Of a DNA stretch of 64,000 nt, positions 12,118 to 58,137 are shown piece after piece. This stretch comes from Promethearchaeota archaeon (GTDB lineage: Archaea; Asgardarchaeota; Lokiarchaeia; Sigyniarchaeales; SOKP01). Both the position numbers and the translations under genes were made by a program. Positions within the stretch are counted from its first letter, which is position 1. Every line of letters begins with the position of its first letter. The stretch is from positions 4,027-68,026 of the forward strand of contig JAEOTP010000016.1 of the NCBI GenBank assembly GCA_016839765.1. Direction: 5' to 3'. The notes beneath the pieces were generated by a model. That model ran no database searches. It was not told the origin of the DNA and saw nothing but the letters and a program-made list of their open reading frames with translations.

Positions 12118-13414
12118 TTAAATCTTCGAGGCGATAAAATCTATGATATCAACAACTTTAATTTTTTCTTTAACCATAGTATCCATTTCTTCATAAGCGT
12201 TGTTTAAGTTATTTATGCAAAATGGACAGCTAGTTGTTAAAATTTGAGCACTACTGTCAACTGCTTCTCTAATACGTTCTTTAGAGATTTTAACCGCTAA
12301 CTCTGGAAATTGGCTTTTTACCCCACCACCCGCGCCACAACACCAAGCATTATTTCTATTTCTCTTCATTTCTATTAATTCAATTCCTGGAATATTAGTA
12401 ATGACTTCACGAGGTATATCATAAAGATTCATGTGGCGACCTAAATGGCAAGGGTCGTGGTAAGTTACCTTTACTTTTTCTCCTTCTTCCTTTTTAAAAG
12501 GAATTTGATTATTATTAAGCAATTCAATTATTATTTCTGTTATATGCTTTACTTCAAATGGTAATTTTTCACCTAATAATTCAGGATAATCTTTTTTCCA
12601 CGTTCGATAACATCCTGCACAAGCGGTAAAGAGAGTCTTAGCACCCCTTTCCTTGAATTCTTCAATATTATGTTTAATCGTTTCAGTTAATGATTTTTCA
12701 TCACCAATACGTATGGCAATTGAGCCACAACACCATTCATCTTTGGTCATTGCTATTTCTTTTCCTGCCGCTTTTAAAATTTTCATCATATTTTTTAATG
12801 TTTCTACCTGTCTTAAAGGTATACTACATCCCCCAAAAAACATTAGTTCTCCCTTTTCCTTAATTTCGGGAAATTCTTTTATCCAATCGAATTTTTCATC
12901 TATATCCTCCCCATATGGATTTCTCATCTTATCATCGTTCATATATTCGACTAAATCACTATGTCTTTCAAGAGGAGCAAAACCAGCTTCAACCAAATCT
13001 TTTCTTAATGCATCCCAAACTTTAACATGATCAATCCAATTACACGTAGGGAGGGTAATATATTCATTTTGAGACATATGACATACTTCAGTACAATTTC
13101 CACATACCGAGCATTGATATACCCATTCTGCAAGCTCTCTACTCAATGGGATTTGTCCTTCTAATATACTCTTGAGGACATTCATCCTCCCTCTTGAAAA
13201 ATATAATTCAAATCCCTCATCTTCCATTGCCTCTTTAACGGGACATGTCAGATATCTCCCAACAACAGGTCGAATGGCGTAACCACAATCTCCACAACCC
13301 AGGCAGGGTTTACGATCGATATCATAAACCTTTCTGCGATCATGGATAATTTCCAAAACCTATACAAGAGAATATGGCTTTCCATTCCTTTTTTAGATGT
13401 TTTAATTCACTCAT
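12118..13414 (-). CDS. HdrD/GlcF-like Fe-S oxidoreductase subunit (2x ferredoxin motif + 2x CCG domain), intron-containing: join(13414..13362,13300..12118), 411 aa
   Basis: ATG at 13414, 10 nt after the SDR stop. The spliced N-terminus is MSELKHLKKEWKAIFSCMGCGDCGYAIRPVVGRYLTCPV. Downstream motifs are CSVCGNCTEVC, WCCGS, CAGC, YHDPCHLGR, CCGAGGG and SCPFC. The ORF track starts this gene at TTG 13356, inside intron A. Confidence 0.85.
13301..13331 (-). other. mRNA BHB intron B, 31 nt (AGGTTTATGATATCGATCGTAAACCCTGCCT)
   Basis: 10-bp stem GGTTTATGAT/ATCGTAAACC, 4-bp central helix GCAG/CTGC, 3-nt bulges AA^A and CT^G, and a 9-bp outer helix TCCATGATC/GGTTGTGGA (with G-U pairs). Confidence 0.85.
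13332..13361 (-). other. mRNA BHB intron A, 30 nt (AGGTTTTGGAAATTATCCATGATCGCAGAA)
   Basis: Stem GGTTTTGGA/TCCATGATC (8 of 9 pairs), central helix TTGT/GCAG, bulges AT^A and AA^G (after B is removed). It contains an in-frame TGA at 13342-13340. Confidence 0.8.
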
Positions 13415-13424
13415 ATTTTTCACA

Positions 13425-14288
13425 TTAAAATATATAAACTAGTTTTTCACTAATTTTCCATAATTTCGTTTGTAGAGATTCATCATAAGTCAATTTGTGT
13501 GATTTTACAGGTTTACAGTTCTTAAAATATTTTCCCGTAATTCCTTCCACTTCGGGCGATGATGCGAGATATACGGAAGTTCTTGCCGCTTCTTCTGGGC
13601 TTTTTGTCAATGGTGATATTAAAGAGAGAAAAATTTTGGAACGTTTTTTAGTTGGAGCTGTCATTTTTGTTCTTGCATGACCTGGATGAAGTGCATTTAC
13701 AGTTACACCAGTTCCATTTAATCTACGTGCCAATTCATATGTGAATAGTACTAACGCAAATTTAGCATTTGCATATGCTTTTTGAGAAGAATATTTTTCC
13801 TCAGACATTAAATCATCAAAATTTATTTTAAAATAGAGATGAATATTTGATGAAACATTTATAATTCGGGAAGGAGCGCTGTTTTTAATGACATCAAGTA
13901 AAGAATTTGTTAATAAGAAATGTGCCAAATAATCGACTGCAAATGTGCTCTCATATCCATTTTCAGTTTCTATTCTTTTTCTATTAAAGATACCGGCATT
14001 ATTTATTAAAACATGTAAATATTTGTAATTCTGTTTGAATTCTTTAGCCACATTTTCAACTGATTTTAAAGAAGCTAGATCTGCGATTAAAAGATCGATT
14101 TTTTCATTACCTGATTTATCTTTGATCTCATTTTGTGCTCTTTCTGCTTTTTCTCTATTTCGACATATCATTATGATATGATATCCCTTTATTGCTAGTT
14201 GCATGGCGGTTTCTATCCCAATACCAGCATTGGCTCCCGTAATCACACAAAATCTTTTGTTAGACTTATAATTTTTGTTAATCATCAT
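13425..14288 (-). CDS. Short-chain dehydrogenase/reductase (retinol dehydrogenase-like subfamily)
   Basis: TGANAGIG, LINNAG, SRIINVSS, YANAK and NALHPG motifs. Confidence 0.93.
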   Translation of the reverse strand: MMINKNYKSNKRFCVITGANAGIGIETAMQLAIKGYHIIMICRNREKAERAQNEIKDKSGNEKIDLLIADLASLKSVENVAKEFKQNYKYLHVLINNAGIFNRKRIETENGYESTFAVDYLAHFLLTNSLLDVIKNSAPSRIINVSSNIHLYFKINFDDLMSEEKYSSQKAYANAKFALVLFTYELARRLNGTGVTVNALHPGHARTKMTAPTKKRSKIFLSLISPLTKSPEEAARTSVYLASSPEVEGITGKYFKNCKPVKSHKLTYDESLQTKLWKISEKLVYIF

Positions 14289-14306
14289 TTCTAAAAATTA
14301 TTATTT

Positions 14307-15818
14307 TTACTCCCAAAAATTAAATTTACCTCTACTCAATATCATATTTGGGTCTAAATTTTTTTTAATAGATGTCATTAAGTTATAAAATTCTTCTGAA
14401 TAAGCTCCAATATCTACCATAAAACGAGATACATAATCACCCATCATATACCATTGCACTCCATGTCTAATTACTCTTTCTAAGAGAGATTTCCATAGCT
14501 TTATGTTAGTTTCTTTGATTAAATCATGGATTTCACCATCATAATACCTCCAAAAGCTTACAAAACCAGCTGTTATCTCAACATTATTACCATCTACTAA
14601 TGGTACAGGTCCACTACCTGAAATCGGCCGAACATTGGTAATATCGAAAATTTTTCGCATATCTGATTCGTGCTCAATATCCCATTGATCAATGTCTTGT
14701 AAAATTTTAGGAAATGCAGAAATTGGACAAAAACACTCTGCTGATAATGGTTGCATTGATGGGTACATCCCCCATAAATTATGATAAAATTGCCAATGCC
14801 CTTGTTCTGCATAATGCCATTTAGCAATATTACCGTCCTTAATCTCAGGGCCTAAAAATTCAGATTTCTTGCCTAATATTATCTCATCCAAATTTTTAAC
14901 TCGTTCTTCTAATTCTATCTTACTATTTGCTTCAATAGTATAAAAGAACATACCAAGTTTACGTTTTATACCTTCCCATAATGGAAACATACCTCGTTCG
15001 GATCCAATAGCAACAACTACATCCGGAATAAACATAGCATCATAAACATCTATGCCTTTTTGCCTAATTTCGGTCATGATTTGAGCTGCTGTCTCAGCAG
15101 ATTTTCGGGGCATCAAAAATGTTTTATAGTCTGCAAACTTTGGTTTAGGAAATATTTGTAGAGATACTTTTGTTTTAACCCCAAATATTCCATTGTCGCC
15201 ACAAAATAATCCAGCTAAGTCAGGTCCATTTCCAAATCTATTAAACGGATATTTCGAAAATTTATTTGCTTGAGAACCAGTCTCTATAATTTCACCAGTA
15301 GGTAAGACTACTTCTAACGAAACTAATTGATTTGTACAAGCTCCATATTTTGCACAACCACCACCTCCCACAGAATGATGGGAAATTCCTCCTCCAACAG
15401 AAGCAGACATTCCTGAACCAGGCCCCATACATCCTGTATAAAGCCCATAATGACAAAGATATTCATTTAATTTACCCCATGAGATTCCGGCTTCTATTGT
15501 AACGATTAGATTATCCTCATCCAAATTAATAATATTATTCATTCTTTTCATGTCTAGAACAATACCACCATCTCCAATGGGTTTACTGCCGCCAAACTCA
15601 CAGATTCCCCCACCGCGAGGTATGACCGGCATATTATTTTCATTCGCAACTTTAAGAATTTCTGAAATTTCTTTAGCATCTTTAGGTCTAATTACTATAT
15701 CAGGCACACCTTGTAATACAAGATCTACATTTCTAGAGTAAGCGTGTCGTACATAAATGCTGTTAGAGAGAAATTTTTTGGATACAATTTTTTCTAATTT
15801 TTGGTAAATTTCAGTCAT
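14307..15818 (-). CDS. FAD-binding oxidoreductase (GlcD/D-lactate dehydrogenase/VAO superfamily)
   Basis: PDIVIRP, PRGGG, VLDMKRMN.I, EAG, SVGG, LEVVLPTGE, GPDL.GLF.G..G.FGV.T and LDPNMILSRG motifs. Confidence 0.9.
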   Translation of the reverse strand: MTEIYQKLEKIVSKKFLSNSIYVRHAYSRNVDLVLQGVPDIVIRPKDAKEISEILKVANENNMPVIPRGGGICEFGGSKPIGDGGIVLDMKRMNNIINLDEDNLIVTIEAGISWGKLNEYLCHYGLYTGCMGPGSGMSASVGGGISHHSVGGGGCAKYGACTNQLVSLEVVLPTGEIIETGSQANKFSKYPFNRFGNGPDLAGLFCGDNGIFGVKTKVSLQIFPKPKFADYKTFLMPRKSAETAAQIMTEIRQKGIDVYDAMFIPDVVVAIGSERGMFPLWEGIKRKLGMFFYTIEANSKIELEERVKNLDEIILGKKSEFLGPEIKDGNIAKWHYAEQGHWQFYHNLWGMYPSMQPLSAECFCPISAFPKILQDIDQWDIEHESDMRKIFDITNVRPISGSGPVPLVDGNNVEITAGFVSFWRYYDGEIHDLIKETNIKLWKSLLERVIRHGVQWYMMGDYVSRFMVDIGAYSEEFYNLMTSIKKNLDPNMILSRGKFNFWE

Positions 15819-31103: not shown

Positions 31104-32793
31104 AATGAGCGAACTAGAGCGCCTTAGACTAAAAACTTTAGACGCTATACGCTTTTCTAAACGATTTTGGATGACATATAGGGAAAATACTTTTGGAATT
31201 GCCTCTATTATAAATTTAGTTTATAAAAAGTCTTTTTTTGAAGTTTTATTCTTTACAAATAAAGATGTTCTAGAGAAGGGAGTCCCTTTATTAAAAATTT
31301 ATACTCCTATCGAAGAGCAAATAGATTTTGATGAAATCATAGTAGAACCTGATTTTGATGATGATGGACTTGTTAGTCCGGTGAAAATCATCGGTCGAAT
31401 GAGAAAGCTTATAAGAAGAGAGTTTCAGAAACATTTAGCATTCTTGGATAAAGAAATAGAACTTCTTGATGAAATATATGAAAATTTCCCCATAGATAAT
31501 ATTCCTTACCATAGAGAAATAGGCATTTATTTCCCTGATTTTGTAGTAAAGCTTAACATAAATTTTGAAAAATTTCCATCTATTCCTTCCTTTTCTTTTT
31601 CAAAAACTCTTTCAAGAATTGTAAGTGAAAGAGAATTTAACGAATCTGCTATTATCACAGACTGGAATGAATTAAACCCACCTCATATATATGAGTTAGT
31701 AGAAAAATTAACTCAAATTGTAACCGATCGTTTAAAAGTAGAACCTATAAAATTTAATTCTCAACACCTTGTGGTTGATAATTTTTCAATAGGGGGTAAT
31801 ATAAAAGACATCTCATTTAAGATCCATAGAGGTAAATCAATAGGGATTGTTTATGATAAAGAATTGTTCGAGAATGCGGAGCATAGTTTGACATTATTAA
31901 AACTTTTTGAGGCTATATCAGGTGAACATCCTAATTTTTCAGGCAGAATTGAGATCTTTGGTAGATATGTTCAATTATTACCCGCATATGATATGGAGAG
32001 AATTTTTATCTTACCCCAAGCTTATGAGTCAAAATTAACTAAAATGAAGCTTAAAAAAGCAGTTCAATATAGTATAGATATTAAGGGTATCCTTAAAGAA
32101 AGAAAAGTTGCTTTGGATAAGGTTTTAAAAAATGCAGGATTAACTTCTAAAATGGGAGATATCGTGAATGATCTTCTTACAGAAGCACCTCTTTTACAAT
32201 TTACTCGGAGGAAAGAATTTATTAAAAATGCTTTAACAGCCACGGGTTTGTGGAATAAAAAGAAAAAAAGATTTTCTCAATTAACACCTTTAGAATTTTT
32301 ACTATTTTCAATTGGAAGAGCATTGCTTCAATCACCTATAATTGTAATGTTTTCAATACCTTTTGGATTACTTAATAGAATAGACTTTGAGAAATTCAAC
32401 AAATATATGAATCGCATAAAAGAAGTATTCCATATAATACTTATTTTTCATGGCCCAGAAGGAATTGCTTCAAAATGTGATCAAATTCTAACTGTTTCTC
32501 AAAGTGTATCTAAAATAGGAACCCATGAGGACTACATCAATGCACTACCATATGCGGGTGAATATATTACAGTTGAATTCAATAATGCAGATGAGAATTT
32601 AATTAAGAAAATAAATGAATTCGAAGAAGTTAATAGAATAATTGAAGAAAGGAAAAATGAAAAATATAAGATATACATAAAAGAAAATCCAGATAAATTA
32701 ATAATAAATTTAACAGAATTGTTTGGAGCAAATCTTTTTAGCTTCAAAATTTCAAAAGCATCAATAGGTGATTATTTAGAATTTAACCAATAA
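31090..32793 (+). CDS. Degenerate ABC ATPase with N-terminal RWD/UBC-like region
   Basis: The NBD scaffold is recognisable (ISFKIHRGKSIG, FSGRIEIFG, ILPQ, SIGRALLQSP), but Walker A GK, LSGG and Walker B DE are lost. The N-terminal region has KLNINFEKFPSIP ... WNELNPPHIYELV. Confidence 0.7.
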   Translation: MKSFKMSELERLRLKTLDAIRFSKRFWMTYRENTFGIASIINLVYKKSFFEVLFFTNKDVLEKGVPLLKIYTPIEEQIDFDEIIVEPDFDDDGLVSPVKIIGRMRKLIRREFQKHLAFLDKEIELLDEIYENFPIDNIPYHREIGIYFPDFVVKLNINFEKFPSIPSFSFSKTLSRIVSEREFNESAIITDWNELNPPHIYELVEKLTQIVTDRLKVEPIKFNSQHLVVDNFSIGGNIKDISFKIHRGKSIGIVYDKELFENAEHSLTLLKLFEAISGEHPNFSGRIEIFGRYVQLLPAYDMERIFILPQAYESKLTKMKLKKAVQYSIDIKGILKERKVALDKVLKNAGLTSKMGDIVNDLLTEAPLLQFTRRKEFIKNALTATGLWNKKKKRFSQLTPLEFLLFSIGRALLQSPIIVMFSIPFGLLNRIDFEKFNKYMNRIKEVFHIILIFHGPEGIASKCDQILTVSQSVSKIGTHEDYINALPYAGEYITVEFNNADENLIKKINEFEEVNRIIEERKNEKYKIYIKENPDKLIINLTELFGANLFSFKISKASIGDYLEFNQ

Positions 32794-36613: not shown

Positions 36614-38122
36614 TTGGTTAAAAGGTTAAGGTTTATGAGCTATAAATTAGCAGATGAAAAAGATTTAGAAGCTATGATTGGTATTGTGGGAAAAGATTAT
36701 GCTACCAATAACAAGGCAATTACAGCGTCATATCTTTCCAAATCTGTAATGGGATTAGAGTCACAAATTCCTGATATCGTCATACGCCCTAAATACGTAG
36801 AAGAGATTCGTAAAATACTACTTTACTGCTCTGCAGAAAAAATTGCAGTCTCACCGATTTCAGCCGGACTATCTGGCGGTTTTGCGTGTCCGACTATTAA
36901 GCCTGCTGGAGTTATGCTTGATTTAGGTAGAATGAATAGAATTATCGAAGTCGATACAGAAAATCGATATGTCGTAGTCGAACCGGGAGTCACGATTGGA
37001 GAGCTGTGGGCTTACATGCACAAGAATTATCCAGAGTGGGCGCCTCCCGTACCAGACGGTGCTCCACCAGCTTCTACCGTAATGGGTGATGCTATCGATC
37101 GAGGGTTTTCCCTTTACACTAGTTCCGTTGGTCCACAAGGTGATAATTTTATGTGCGGTGAGATAGTGTTTCCAAATGGAGATATTGTGCGAACCGGTTC
37201 TTGGGCTCTTCCATTTGCGAAACCGTTCTATAAATACGGACTAGGTCCAGATATCTGGTCCTTTTTAATGGGTTCACAAGGAGCTCTAGGCGTAATGACT
37301 AAAGTTGCAGTTAAAATATATCCACATCCAAAATTTAAGACTGTAGTTGTGTGGGGCATGTCCAATCCTGAGGATATGCAGAACTTAACACTTGAAATTG
37401 GAAAACAAGAATTTGGAATTGCACACAACACCGTTATGGTTCAAGGTGGGAACTATCCATTAGTAATGACACGTTGGCCAAAAGATAAAGTTCCTCACGA
37501 TTATGAATTCTACGAACAGCTAGGAATTAGTAAGTGGTGGATGAATTGGGAGTGCTGGGCACAAACTCAAGAAGAGTTAGATTATGTGGTTAATAGAATC
37601 AATAAAATGGCTGAAGATTTTAAGAAAAATAGAGCTAAAGATCCTGATGGTATAAAACCTCAGGAACTACATCCCAAACAAATCGCAAGCAGATTGAAGA
37701 AACCCAATAAGATTGCGATTCCTTATTCATTCTGGGAGGCAGGATTTTTATTCATTACGTTCTATACACCATGGAACGAATGCGCCCATTTTGCTGAAAT
37801 GTACTGTAAAGCTATGGAAGATCGAGGATTTCCACCAGTAATGTGGATTGCTAGTATTGAGCGTTGTAGGCAAGCAATTTGTATGCCAATTATTTGTTTC
37901 GATAGCACAAAACAATCAGATTTCGAAAAAGTTCAAGAGATGAATAGAGAAACAACAGAATACGCGCTTAAGCAAGGGTGGTTGAATTATCGTCCAGATC
38001 CATACATCCATGCACCTCTCACTTATTCTCAAGCAGGAATGTATTGGAAATATTTGAGGATGATGAAGAAAATGTTTGATCCTAATATGATAATGCATCC
38101 CGGAAGACTTGCTCTTCCTTAA
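36614..38122 (+). CDS. FAD-binding oxidoreductase (GlcD/VAO superfamily); likely start ATG 36636
   Basis: PDIVIRP, MLDLGRMNRIIEVD, VEPGVT, G.IVRTGS, GPD....MGSQG..GVMT and FDPNMIMHPG. Confidence 0.9.
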   Translation: MVKRLRFMSYKLADEKDLEAMIGIVGKDYATNNKAITASYLSKSVMGLESQIPDIVIRPKYVEEIRKILLYCSAEKIAVSPISAGLSGGFACPTIKPAGVMLDLGRMNRIIEVDTENRYVVVEPGVTIGELWAYMHKNYPEWAPPVPDGAPPASTVMGDAIDRGFSLYTSSVGPQGDNFMCGEIVFPNGDIVRTGSWALPFAKPFYKYGLGPDIWSFLMGSQGALGVMTKVAVKIYPHPKFKTVVVWGMSNPEDMQNLTLEIGKQEFGIAHNTVMVQGGNYPLVMTRWPKDKVPHDYEFYEQLGISKWWMNWECWAQTQEELDYVVNRINKMAEDFKKNRAKDPDGIKPQELHPKQIASRLKKPNKIAIPYSFWEAGFLFITFYTPWNECAHFAEMYCKAMEDRGFPPVMWIASIERCRQAICMPIICFDSTKQSDFEKVQEMNRETTEYALKQGWLNYRPDPYIHAPLTYSQAGMYWKYLRMMKKMFDPNMIMHPGRLALP

Positions 38123-38144
38123 TTGAGTAAGGAGGTAAAAAAAA

Positions 38145-39569
38145 ATGGCTAAAACTGGAATGGAAAGATTAAAAGAATTAGAGAAGGAAATATATAAGTG
38201 TATTCACTGTAAAGCATGTAGATTTGCTTATTCGGGAGAGCCCAGTAGAGAAGGGATAGGGGAATATACAGGTAAACAGGGTACAGTTCTTTATGAAGGA
38301 ATGGTTGACGCATGTCCAGCTGGAATAGAATACGGTTGGGAAGCGTTTTGGAACGCCGGTAAAATTTGGATTGCTCGTTCAATTTTAAGCGGAGATTTAG
38401 ATTTTTCTGATGAAGTAAGGGATGTTATAATGCCTTGTATTACTTGTGGACAATGCAGTGCTCAATGTGATAATAAAATTCCAACTGTTGATATTATCGA
38501 ATCATTACGAGCAGCATGTAATGAAGCGGGTATTCCAATGATAGAAAAGCATGAATTAGTGGATAGGCTTGTAAAGGAACTCAATAATCCTTACGGTGGA
38601 AAAGCTGCAGAACGCTTTAAATGGGCAAAAGATGCCGGATTAGAGAAATTTGTTGATAATAAAGAAGCAAAAATTGGCTACTATGTAGGTTGTACTGCAT
38701 CATACCGTCAAGTGGAAGTCGCAATAGCAACTGCGAAACTTTTTGAAATGTTGGGCATCAACTTTACTTTAGTTGGTGATGAGGTATGTTGTGGAAGTCC
38801 TTTCTTTAGAATAGGAGCTGTTGACACTGCACAAGAACTAATGAACAAAAATCTCGAGGCTTTTAAAGGTTTAGAAATGGTTTACTTCAGTTGTGCTGGA
38901 TGTTATAGGACAATCACTTTAGATTATCCAAAATGGATGCCTGAGGGTTCCAAACTACCTTTCAAAACACAACACGCATTTGAATTAGTCACTCGATTAA
39001 TCCAACAAGAAAAAATCAAATTCAAGCCAAATAAAGAGTTAAAAGGAAAGATAGTTACCTATCACGACCCGTGCCATACTGGTCGTCATTTCGGAGTTGA
39101 TTTTGAGCAAGAACTTATCAAACAAAGCAAGAATTTAATGTTCGATATGAGAAAAATCAAAGAGAAAATTGATAAATGGTTTGAAATTCCAAGAATTATT
39201 CTTAGAAAGCTTGAAGAGGATGTTGGAATCGAATTTAGAGAAATGTATCGTATAAAACTGAATAGTATGTGCTGTGGGGCAGGTGGTGGTGTCCGTGCTG
39301 GATATCCTGATTTCTCAATACGCACTGCTAGTTTACGATGTGATGAAGCAAATGCAGTAGAAGCAGATATTTTGACAACCGAATGTCCTTTTTGCTGGAG
39401 GAATCTAACGGATGCTAATGAACTATACAATCATGGCATGAAAGTTATGGGTGTTTTACAAATGATTACTGAATATAATTTATTAGAAATCTTAGATAAT
39501 CCGACTGAAAAAGATTTCTTGACCTCCTCTATAAGGGAACTTGAAGCAGATTCCGAAAAGAAGAAATAA
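38145..39569 (+). CDS. HdrD/GlcF-like Fe-S protein with two CCG domains (intronless paralogue of 12118-13414)
   Basis: CIHCKAC...CP, CITCGQCSAQC, VCCGS, CAGC, YHDPCH, CCGAGGG and ECPFC. Confidence 0.92.
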   Translation: MAKTGMERLKELEKEIYKCIHCKACRFAYSGEPSREGIGEYTGKQGTVLYEGMVDACPAGIEYGWEAFWNAGKIWIARSILSGDLDFSDEVRDVIMPCITCGQCSAQCDNKIPTVDIIESLRAACNEAGIPMIEKHELVDRLVKELNNPYGGKAAERFKWAKDAGLEKFVDNKEAKIGYYVGCTASYRQVEVAIATAKLFEMLGINFTLVGDEVCCGSPFFRIGAVDTAQELMNKNLEAFKGLEMVYFSCAGCYRTITLDYPKWMPEGSKLPFKTQHAFELVTRLIQQEKIKFKPNKELKGKIVTYHDPCHTGRHFGVDFEQELIKQSKNLMFDMRKIKEKIDKWFEIPRIILRKLEEDVGIEFREMYRIKLNSMCCGAGGGVRAGYPDFSIRTASLRCDEANAVEADILTTECPFCWRNLTDANELYNHGMKVMGVLQMITEYNLLEILDNPTEKDFLTSSIRELEADSEKKK

Positions 39570-58033: not shown

Positions 58034-58137
58034 GGGAGGGTGGTCTAGCTTGGTATGATACATTAGCTTGGTTCTTTCAAACTAAATCTAATCGGCTGGG
58101 GGCCGAGTGGTCGGGGGTTCAATTCCCCCCTCTCCCA
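58034..58137 (+). tRNA. tRNA-Pro(GGG) with a non-canonical intron at 27/28
   Basis: Acceptor GGGAGGG/CTCTCCC, D-arm GTCT-AGCTTGGTA-TGAT, T-arm GGGGG-TTCAATT-CCCCC and discriminator A58137. Removing 58062-58091 gives anticodon arm CTCGG-CTGGGGG-CCGAG. CCA is not encoded. Confidence 0.9.
58062..58091 (+). other. tRNA-Pro intron (27/28), 30 nt, relaxed BHB
   Basis: Stem TTAGCTTGG/TCAAACTAA (8 of 9 pairs), central TGAT/ATCT (3 pairs + U-U) and bulges AC^A and AA^T. Confidence 0.8.

Follow-up and report, generated by a model that had tools for sequence, protein, structure and literature searches.

Two nested bulge-helix-bulge introns predicted in an iron-sulfur protein gene of an Asgard archaeon

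The DNA analysed here is a 64,000-nt stretch of contig JAEOTP010000016.1 from a Promethearchaeota archaeon (the window), and its subject is a minus-strand gene for an iron-sulfur (Fe-S) protein, the coding sequence of which is interrupted by a 61-nt insert. The transcript of this gene very probably carries two bulge-helix-bulge (BHB) introns, A and B, which would be excised by the endonuclease EndA, the exons then being rejoined by an RtcB-type ligase. The interruption is precisely absent from orthologues, is non-coding, and forms a covarying structure in the canonical register within a gene whose exons are under purifying selection. The two introns are nested like a twintron and not merely tandem.

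Interruption of the Fe-S gene and its distribution

The frame opened by ATG 13414 (-), 10 nt past the stop codon of a short-chain dehydrogenase (SDR) open reading frame (ORF), reads MSELKHLKKEWKAIFSC and then IGFGNYP before it reaches TGA at 13342-13340. In-silico removal of the insert at 13361-13301 joined TGTAT to GGGTTGTGG (UCU UGU AU + G GGU UGU GGA) and produced the junction peptide MSELKHLKKEWKAIFSC-M-GCGDCGY in a product of 411 aa, which begins MSELKHLKKEWKAIFSCMGCGDCGYAIRP... and whose ORF ends at 12118; stop codons persisted if only A (30 nt) or only B (31 nt) was deleted. An earlier note, made from the letters of the window, had described the ATG, the insert with its TGA, the division into A (13361-13332) and B (13331-13301), and the TGTAT-to-GGGTTGT junction of a 411-aa ORF, and all of these coordinates and translations were reproduced.

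The junction was supported by orthologues. With the spliced protein as query, 6806 relatives were found, and N-termini were compared in the best 120. As the earlier note had anticipated, intronless orthologues with a contiguous N-terminus exist: the string W-K-A-I-[FM]-S-C-M-G-C-G-D-C-G-Y, the same as in the in-silico spliced product, was present in 94 of the best 120, and several intronless orthologues were residue-for-residue identical to the predicted product over the junction. The closest relatives (at least 86% identity) were all without the contiguous N-terminus and started with MEII... or [ML]QKGCGDCGY, the latter being the frame given by removing only the second half of the insert. The exon 1 peptide was conserved in all orthologues, and the differences in exon 1 among intron-bearing alleles were synonymous (GCC ATA TTC TCT vs GCA ATC TTT TCG, both A-I-F-S). 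The earlier note had pointed to a paralogue at 38145, whose gap-free match is real but weak (7/17 residues identical, with the same Cys spacing), and the orthologues are far stronger evidence for the junction. Named relatives in the protein search were Promethearchaeota (the current name of Lokiarchaeota) or metagenome-assembled genomes (MAGs) of Hod-, Heimdall-, Thor- and Lokiarchaeota; the relatives are Asgard MAGs, comprising Promethearchaeota and some labelled Hod-, Hermod- or Odinarchaeota.

Related loci numbered 56, with 23 from species-representative genomes and 33 from metagenomes, and 52 of them include the N-terminal region. The insert was absent from 24 of the 52, single in 17 and double in 11, as it also is in the window. 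Single inserts measured 29, 30, 31 or 34 nt and double inserts 56, 57, 59, 60 or 61 nt. Every insert in these loci and in the window lies between TG[TC]AT and G-GGN-TG and splits the Met18 codon as AU|G, and intron A has the same position as the single 29-34-nt introns of relatives. In all, 28 independent contigs carry the insert, and they derive from many different samples and assemblers. After in-silico splicing, an ORF of 410-412 aa was obtained in all complete loci, L050 excepted. This locus (JABUBM010001762.1) has a 31-nt intron and also a frameshift or deletion at about locus positions 914-941, with loss of about residues 257-277, which probably reflects a damaged copy or misassembly and not a second intron.

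Since the insert lengths fall in all three phases and an exon-1-frame stop occurs in 23 of the 24 distinct inserts, the remaining one shifting the frame, no insert can be translated through, and an intein or in-frame insertion was ruled out on the same grounds. Reading the UGA in intron A as selenocysteine was rejected, with three further stops in that frame. A transposon-like insertion was also rejected, no target-site duplication being visible at the insert boundaries of the compared loci. The dN/dS between intron-bearing alleles was 0.06-0.19; the exons are under purifying selection, and these are therefore functional genes whose two parts must be joined.

BHB motifs and their nested arrangement

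For the structural comparison, splice sites were set by exon homology alone and rows were built by register, not fitted to the structure, except that motif score decided the A/B split point of double inserts. A 4/4 central helix with 3-nt bulges was found in each of the 15 distinct single introns, the 5' bulge being AUA and the 3' bulge NN|G, followed by the inner helix, and an outer helix of 2-3 bp. The best split of the double inserts gave an A of 29-30 nt and a B of 26-31 nt, with the last part of A forming the 5' 'exon' strand of B. In the window, B is a canonical hBHBh' motif, its helices and bulges being as the earlier note had drawn them, and A is a relaxed BHB with a 2-bp outer helix (Table 1).

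Both BHB motifs are maintained by compensatory changes. Across 21 distinct rows of the A motif, 89.7% of cells pair, vs 39-48% when the partners are slid by 1-3 columns, and the covariation score was 0.509 vs 0.26 in shuffles (0/500 shuffles as high); the central pair 24:57 occurs as U-G, G-U, G-C, C-G and U-A. For the B motif (9 rows) the corresponding values were 87.2% vs 36-53%, again with 0/500 shuffles matching the covariation score, and 4/7 pairs of the inner stem were altered on both sides, GGUUUAUGAU/AUCGUAAACC being replaced by GAUUUAUGAU/AUCAUAAAUC in L025 and L056. The Ser16 codon (window 13369-13367) was TCN in 22/22 intron-bearing variants vs 3/20 intronless ones (Fisher p = 4e-9, the sequences not being independent), AGY being found in 17/20 intronless variants; TCN supplies the C-G and U-G outer-helix pairs of the A motif. 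The region folds better than shuffled sequence (z = -3.5, 0/200 shuffles equal). Motifs matching B in strictness (8 bp or more in the inner helix, 5 bp or more in the outer) numbered five on both strands of the window vs none in three shuffles, and B was the best of the five and the sole short one; the others are long, AT-rich and located within intact ORFs, e.g. 31190-31249. A distal exon-exon helix (13379-13367/13293-13281) was rejected as an intron-specific clamp, as it pairs equally in intronless alleles (8.05 vs 8.9 of 12 positions).

Cuts after the second bulge nucleotide give the orthologue consensus SCMGCGDC exactly. This cut position within the bulge was adopted from the established tRNA geometry (introns at position 37/38); in the only tRNA gene of the window (58034-58137, +), used to check the cut register, no clean BHB could be placed and no unambiguous parse was obtained. 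That gene, of 104 nt, is about 30 nt over the standard length, scored 35.9 bits with Rfam and was missed by default ARAGORN; it contains a non-canonical intron, a long extra arm, or both, and ARAGORN with introns allowed returned SeC(UCA) or Leu(CAA) depending on the settings.

The nesting of the introns centers on GCAG at 13337-13334, which is the 3' strand of the A central helix, with UUGU, and the 5' strand of the B central helix, with CUGC. Since GCAG is common to both helices, the two motifs are mutually exclusive and B would have to be removed before A; B first and A second is thus the likely order in this model. The earlier note had called the introns tandem, and there are indeed two of them, but they are not independent units. 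If A were removed first, UUGU would face CUGC and B would be left with 2/4 central pairs, on which ground A-before-B was rejected as a productive route; one 61-nt intron with a single BHB was also rejected, as UUGU and CUGC do not pair. The isolated motif energies were -24.4 kcal/mol for B and -4.6 kcal/mol for A. GCAG/CUGC and the B stem are formed in the minimum-energy fold of the precursor, and the fold after removal of B shows the AUA bulge, 3/4 central pairs and the A hairpin, i.e., a relaxed motif. The first six nucleotides of B equal those of A (AGGUUU), and the junction GCAGAA|AGGUUU (13337-13326, -) equals the one that would be expected of a circularised A. This repeat at the A|B junction is weaker in L004 and L011 and missing in L017, and it may be a trace of the origin of B, or chance.

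Table 1. Features of the interrupted Fe-S gene, its predicted BHB motifs and the adjoining genes (window positions)
Feature	Position	Strand	Remarks
Exon 1	13362..13414	-	53 nt: ATG + 17 codons (MSELKHLKKEWKAIFSC) + AU of the Met18 codon
Intron A (predicted)	13332..13361	-	30 nt, AGGUUUUGGAAAUUAUCCAUGAUCGCAGAA
Intron B (predicted)	13301..13331	-	31 nt, AGGUUUAUGAUAUCGAUCGUAAACCCUGCCU; exactly at the 3' splice site of A
GCAG	13334..13337	-	strand common to the central helices of both BHB motifs
Exon 2	12118..13300	-	G of the Met18 codon, GCGDCGY... through the stop
A motif, central helix	UUGU 13367-13364 with GCAG 13337-13334	-	
A motif, bulges	AUA 13363-13361; AA+G 13333-13332 plus 13300	-	
A motif, inner hairpin	13360-13338	-	interrupted, 4+4 bp
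A motif, outer helix	13369-13368 with 13299-13298	-	2 bp
B motif, outer helix	13346-13338 with 13299-13291	-	9 bp, three G-U pairs
B motif, central helix	GCAG 13337-13334 with CUGC 13306-13303	-	4 bp
B motif, bulges	13333-13331 (AAA), 13302-13300 (CUG)	-	3 nt each
B motif, inner stem	13330-13321 with 13316-13307	-	10 bp
Predicted spliced-junction peptides		-	AIFSCMGCGDCGY, AIFSCMGCGDCGYAIRPVVGR; from in-silico splicing; contrast unspliced MEIIHDRR...
5' part of gene-caller ORF	13248..13356	-	start TTG 13356, MEIIHDRRKVYDIDRKPCLGCGDC...; frame includes part of A and the whole of B
Upstream same-strand gene cluster	13425..15818	-	FAD oxidase + short-chain dehydrogenase
GlcD-like FAD oxidase	14307-15818	-	
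Short-chain dehydrogenase (SDR) ORF	13425-14288	-	

Proposed splicing pathway and alternative explanations

The enzymes, the order of the steps and splicing at the RNA level itself are what we infer, as follows. In the first step the strong B motif would fold through its outer and central helices, the two bulges and the inner stem; EndA would cleave both bulges behind their second nucleotide (13332|13331 and 13301|13300), and ligation would give the predicted intermediate CGCAGAA|GGGTTGTGG. In the second step the freed GCAG would pair with UUGU of exon 1 to form the weaker, relaxed A motif, and EndA would cut at 13362|13361 and again at the AA|G junction created in the first step. The final ligation would restore the Met18 codon (AU+G) and the C-x2-C-x2-C motif, its first Cys coming from exon 1, and give the 411-aa protein. 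The predicted final RNA junction is TTCTCTTGTAT|GGGTTGTGGAG, also written TCTTGTAT|GGGTTGTGG; the alternative intermediate with A removed first, exon 1 joined to B, would read TGTAT|AGGTTTATG. Circular introns would have the junctions CCCTGCCT|AGGTTTATG for B and TCGCAGAA|AGGTTTTGG for A. Asgard archaea possess an (alpha-beta)2 EndA with an L1 loop and broad specificity for relaxed motifs (PMC5829648; PMC6379350), and introns are found in 92-95% of the tRNA genes of some Asgard genomes, with frequent cases of more than one per gene and of non-canonical position (PMC11291895). The proposal of the earlier note that a metabolic mRNA is spliced is supported by the orthologue junction, the insert polymorphism and the compensatory changes, splicing itself being a prediction.

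Several points weigh against this pathway. The A motif is weak, with its 2-bp outer helix and interrupted hairpin of 4+4 bp, and a motif of this kind alone (inner helix 4 bp, outer helix 2 bp) occurs about 700 times per strand vs 580-660 in shuffles, which is the chance level; its significance therefore comes only from its register with the protein junction and from covariation. One or both central helices have just 3/4 pairs in the L017/L036/L046 group, and the exact spliced protein was not found in a collection of 15 billion proteins. Furthermore, the first splice site lies just 53 nt into the coding sequence, where translation coupled to transcription would be in competition with the folding of the motif.

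Gene finders call the open frame from TTG 13356 to 12118 as a 412-aa protein MEIIHDRRKVYDIDRKPCLGCGDCGY..., and the gene might be unspliced, starting at this TTG with MEIIHDRRKVYDIDRKPCLGCGDC... as annotated, so that the ATG-13414 frame would be meaningless. The frame is open, and it keeps a C-x2-C-x2-C motif in the window (KPCLGCGDC), P0001, P0002 and P0014 being listed likewise; the motif is there because CUGC happens to hold an in-frame UGC. The intact ferredoxin motif, from which the earlier note had argued, is indeed restored by splicing, but given its presence in the TTG ORF it is the relatives, not the motif, that refute this ORF. MEII-type starts exist in the annotation of close orthologues, but in L025 a TGA lies in the same frame as the TTG ORF, and the called ORF of single-intron relatives starts with [ML]QKGCGDC, without the first cluster Cys. 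Between the window and L056, 5/11 residues of the TTG-ORF 'N-terminus' differ where the flanking exons are identical, and the changes are compensatory in an RNA stem. Changes in this stretch between relatives are non-synonymous, yet exon 1 differs only synonymously. AGGU is only 1-2 nt upstream of TTG 13356 and is therefore too close for a ribosome-binding site. The unspliced gene is thus very improbable, and the TTG-13356 N-terminus is an annotation artefact.

Bypassing of the 29-61 nt insert by ribosomes on uncut RNA, as in phage T4 gene 60, would fit the size of the gap, near the 50 nt of gene 60, and the stable hairpin after the take-off region. Hopping is unable to build the Met18 codon from its two halves AU|G, however, and no matched pair of take-off and landing codons is found throughout the 24 insert variants, in which the final codon in frame ahead of exon 2 is AAG, CUG, UUG, AGG or another; bypassing, moreover, has no need of the feature that is conserved, a BHB of two-fold symmetry with 3-nt bulges, and we consider this explanation extremely improbable. 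Some agent different from EndA and RtcB, for example a novel nuclease or an element that cleaves itself, might remove the insert from the RNA; the enzymes of the pathway above are predicted ones and the A motif is relaxed, but we give this explanation a very small chance. The conserved features are nevertheless exactly those read by EndA (two bulges of 3 nt beside a helix of 4 bp, with each strand cut behind the second nucleotide of its bulge); Rfam at its gathering thresholds found only one tRNA in the window and no ribozyme or self-splicing intron, and neither a 30-nt intron nor the inserts as a whole (29-61 nt) could accommodate the catalytic core, hundreds of nucleotides in size, of a group I or group II intron. 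In the genomic sequence the reading frame is disrupted, as it would be in a pseudogene or through an assembly or sequencing artefact, but the number of independent contigs and the precise, invariant boundaries of the insert, together with the dN/dS values given above, mean that this explanation is effectively refuted; the assembly artefact that the earlier note had raised against itself fell with it.

A crude scan of the window for other BHB-split genes (those in which excision of a motif reopens an ORF, with 60 open codons on either side), which short exons and double introns would escape, gave gene-boundary artefacts only. Elsewhere in the window the intron sequences had a single 15-nt exact match, to the 5' end of A (AGGTTTTGGAAATTA), at 47334-47320 (-) in an intact 717-aa helicase ORF; it was judged to be chance. 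The neighbouring genes for FAD oxidase, SDR and aminotransferase in the related loci were also checked for introns, and none of them gave a split match.

Host gene, intron turnover and known systems

The 411-aa protein contains two CCG domains and a Fer4_8 dicluster region and resembles TfrB, GlcF, GlpC and HdrD, with scores below all curated cut-offs; its best match among solved structures was 'iron-sulfur-binding reductase', followed by HdrB. The host gene is described as an HdrD/TfrB/GlcF-like CCG-domain Fe-S protein gene, and it is directly adjoined by the FAD oxidase gene in most relatives. An uninterrupted paralogous pair, a GlcD-like FAD oxidase (502 aa) and a CCG-domain Fe-S protein (474 aa), is located at 36614-39569 (+). 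The gene-caller and NCBI models of every intron-bearing allele have false or truncated N-termini (MEIIH..., [ML]QKGCGDC... or [ML]GCGDC...), and the mis-annotated public proteins, in which the first Fe-S cluster Cys is missing, include P0001-P0011, P0014, P0048, P0064, P0078, P0089 and others.

In a neighbour-joining tree built from the spliced coding sequences, the intron states are dispersed. Alleles differing in intron state were 93-97% identical overall and 80-83% identical near the intron site. For instance, the intronless L001 and L025, with its 61-nt insert, were 97% identical overall and near 100% beyond nt 180, with 80-83% in the first 120 nt, and the pairs L001/L002, L010/L040 and L028/L014 showed the same pattern of a differing intron state with a divergent 5' end. 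L002 and L044, which have the same 30-nt intron, were 95% identical in the first 60 nt and 74% overall. This pattern suggests that the intron and its exon flanks are exchanged or erased by recombination; chimeric assemblies and tree error are also possible. The intronless P0125 (411 aa) falls in the same 90%-identity cluster as the intron-bearing P0009, with a different N-terminus (MSKLKHLKKEWKGIMSC...), and this is another recent intron-state difference with a divergent 5' end. The intronless alleles with TCN at Ser16 (L005, L026 and L027) may have lost an intron recently and precisely. A single origin is probable for the double state, because all double inserts share one A type (A-G-[GA]-TTTTGGAA[AT]TTATCC...).

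A broader and rather doubtful reading is that BHB mini-introns form an active, evolving population in the protein-coding genes of Asgard archaea. On that population reading, B would have been inserted by reversed cleavage-ligation exactly at the EndA cut site of A, and an intron together with about 60-120 nt of flanking exon would be spread or erased between diverged alleles by recombination, comparable to group I intron homing with co-conversion.

Among the closest known systems is the intron of the cbf5 pre-mRNA of Crenarchaeota (Desulfurococcales and Sulfolobales), which is of the BHB type and lies in a protein-coding gene (PMC2738675); papers up to 2025 cite only crenarchaeal cbf5 for archaeal pre-mRNA splicing (PMC12397907, PMC6379350). 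Like it, the Fe-S gene introns are small, are present or absent at one site in a lineage-specific manner, and mislead gene prediction. In the lineages concerned, which have a hetero-oligomeric EndA of broad specificity, this tRNA splicing endonuclease excises the cbf5 intron, and the same is expected here. Work on this intron is reportedly that of Watanabe 2002, Yoshinari 2006 and Yokobori 2009 (PMC2738675). In contrast to cbf5, which encodes an RNA-modification enzyme (pseudouridine synthase) and is interrupted in TACK archaea, the host gene here encodes a metabolic Fe-S subunit of an Asgard archaeon, the polymorphism is much richer (alleles with 0, 1 or 2 introns, and 7 or more types of hairpin), and the second intron is nested at the splice site of the first; moreover, splicing was shown experimentally for cbf5, whereas for the Fe-S gene it is deduced. 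The Fe-S gene introns are thus of the same intron class as that of cbf5 and of a different family.

The multiple and non-canonical BHB introns of archaeal tRNAs (Thermoproteales; Atabeya-/Freyarchaeia, PMC11291895) have the same motif and presumably the same enzymes, and they likewise occur several per gene, with relaxed motifs and evidence of gain and turnover. The host RNA here is an mRNA, unlike in those cases, so that the reading frame and competing translation matter. As far as a non-exhaustive literature search shows, there is no known description of two tRNA introns with a common central-helix strand that forces the order of removal. Twintrons, i.e., introns within introns, are known from the group II and group III introns of Euglena plastids. 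They resemble the arrangement proposed here in their obligatory sequential removal, the outer splicing signal being completed only once the inner intron is gone, and differ from it in that they are self-splicing ribozymes, not substrates of an endonuclease and a ligase, and in that B lies exactly at the 3' cut site of A and not inside A. IRE1 splicing (HAC1/XBP1) and the 'SOS splicing' of transposons, an unconventional mRNA splicing in eukaryotes by an endonuclease and RtcB (PMC12779559), are likewise spliceosome-independent and guided by RNA structure, with RtcB-type sealing that restores the frame; their nucleases and motifs are different, and those systems are regulated or defensive.

The machinery and the motif are already known, and the novelty lies in the lineage and the gene that host the introns and in their nested, two-step architecture. 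The earlier note had known of no described case of tandem BHB introns in an Asgard metabolic gene, and a full-text literature search, with most subscription journals outside its scope, likewise returned no report of BHB introns in Asgard protein-coding genes, 'undescribed' being provisional. The Fe-S gene would be the second host gene for archaeal protein-coding BHB introns and the first in Asgard archaea, and a metabolic one. Its series of alleles with 0, 1 and 2 introns and many hairpins is a natural experiment on intron gain, precise loss and co-conversion in archaea. The public annotation is wrong in every intron-bearing genome, and comparable errors may hide elsewhere; if, as on the population reading, the locus is not unique, Asgard gene catalogues would systematically mis-call split genes, and in that case the closest archaeal relatives of eukaryotes would already tolerate the gain and loss of mRNA introns by means of the tRNA-splicing machinery.

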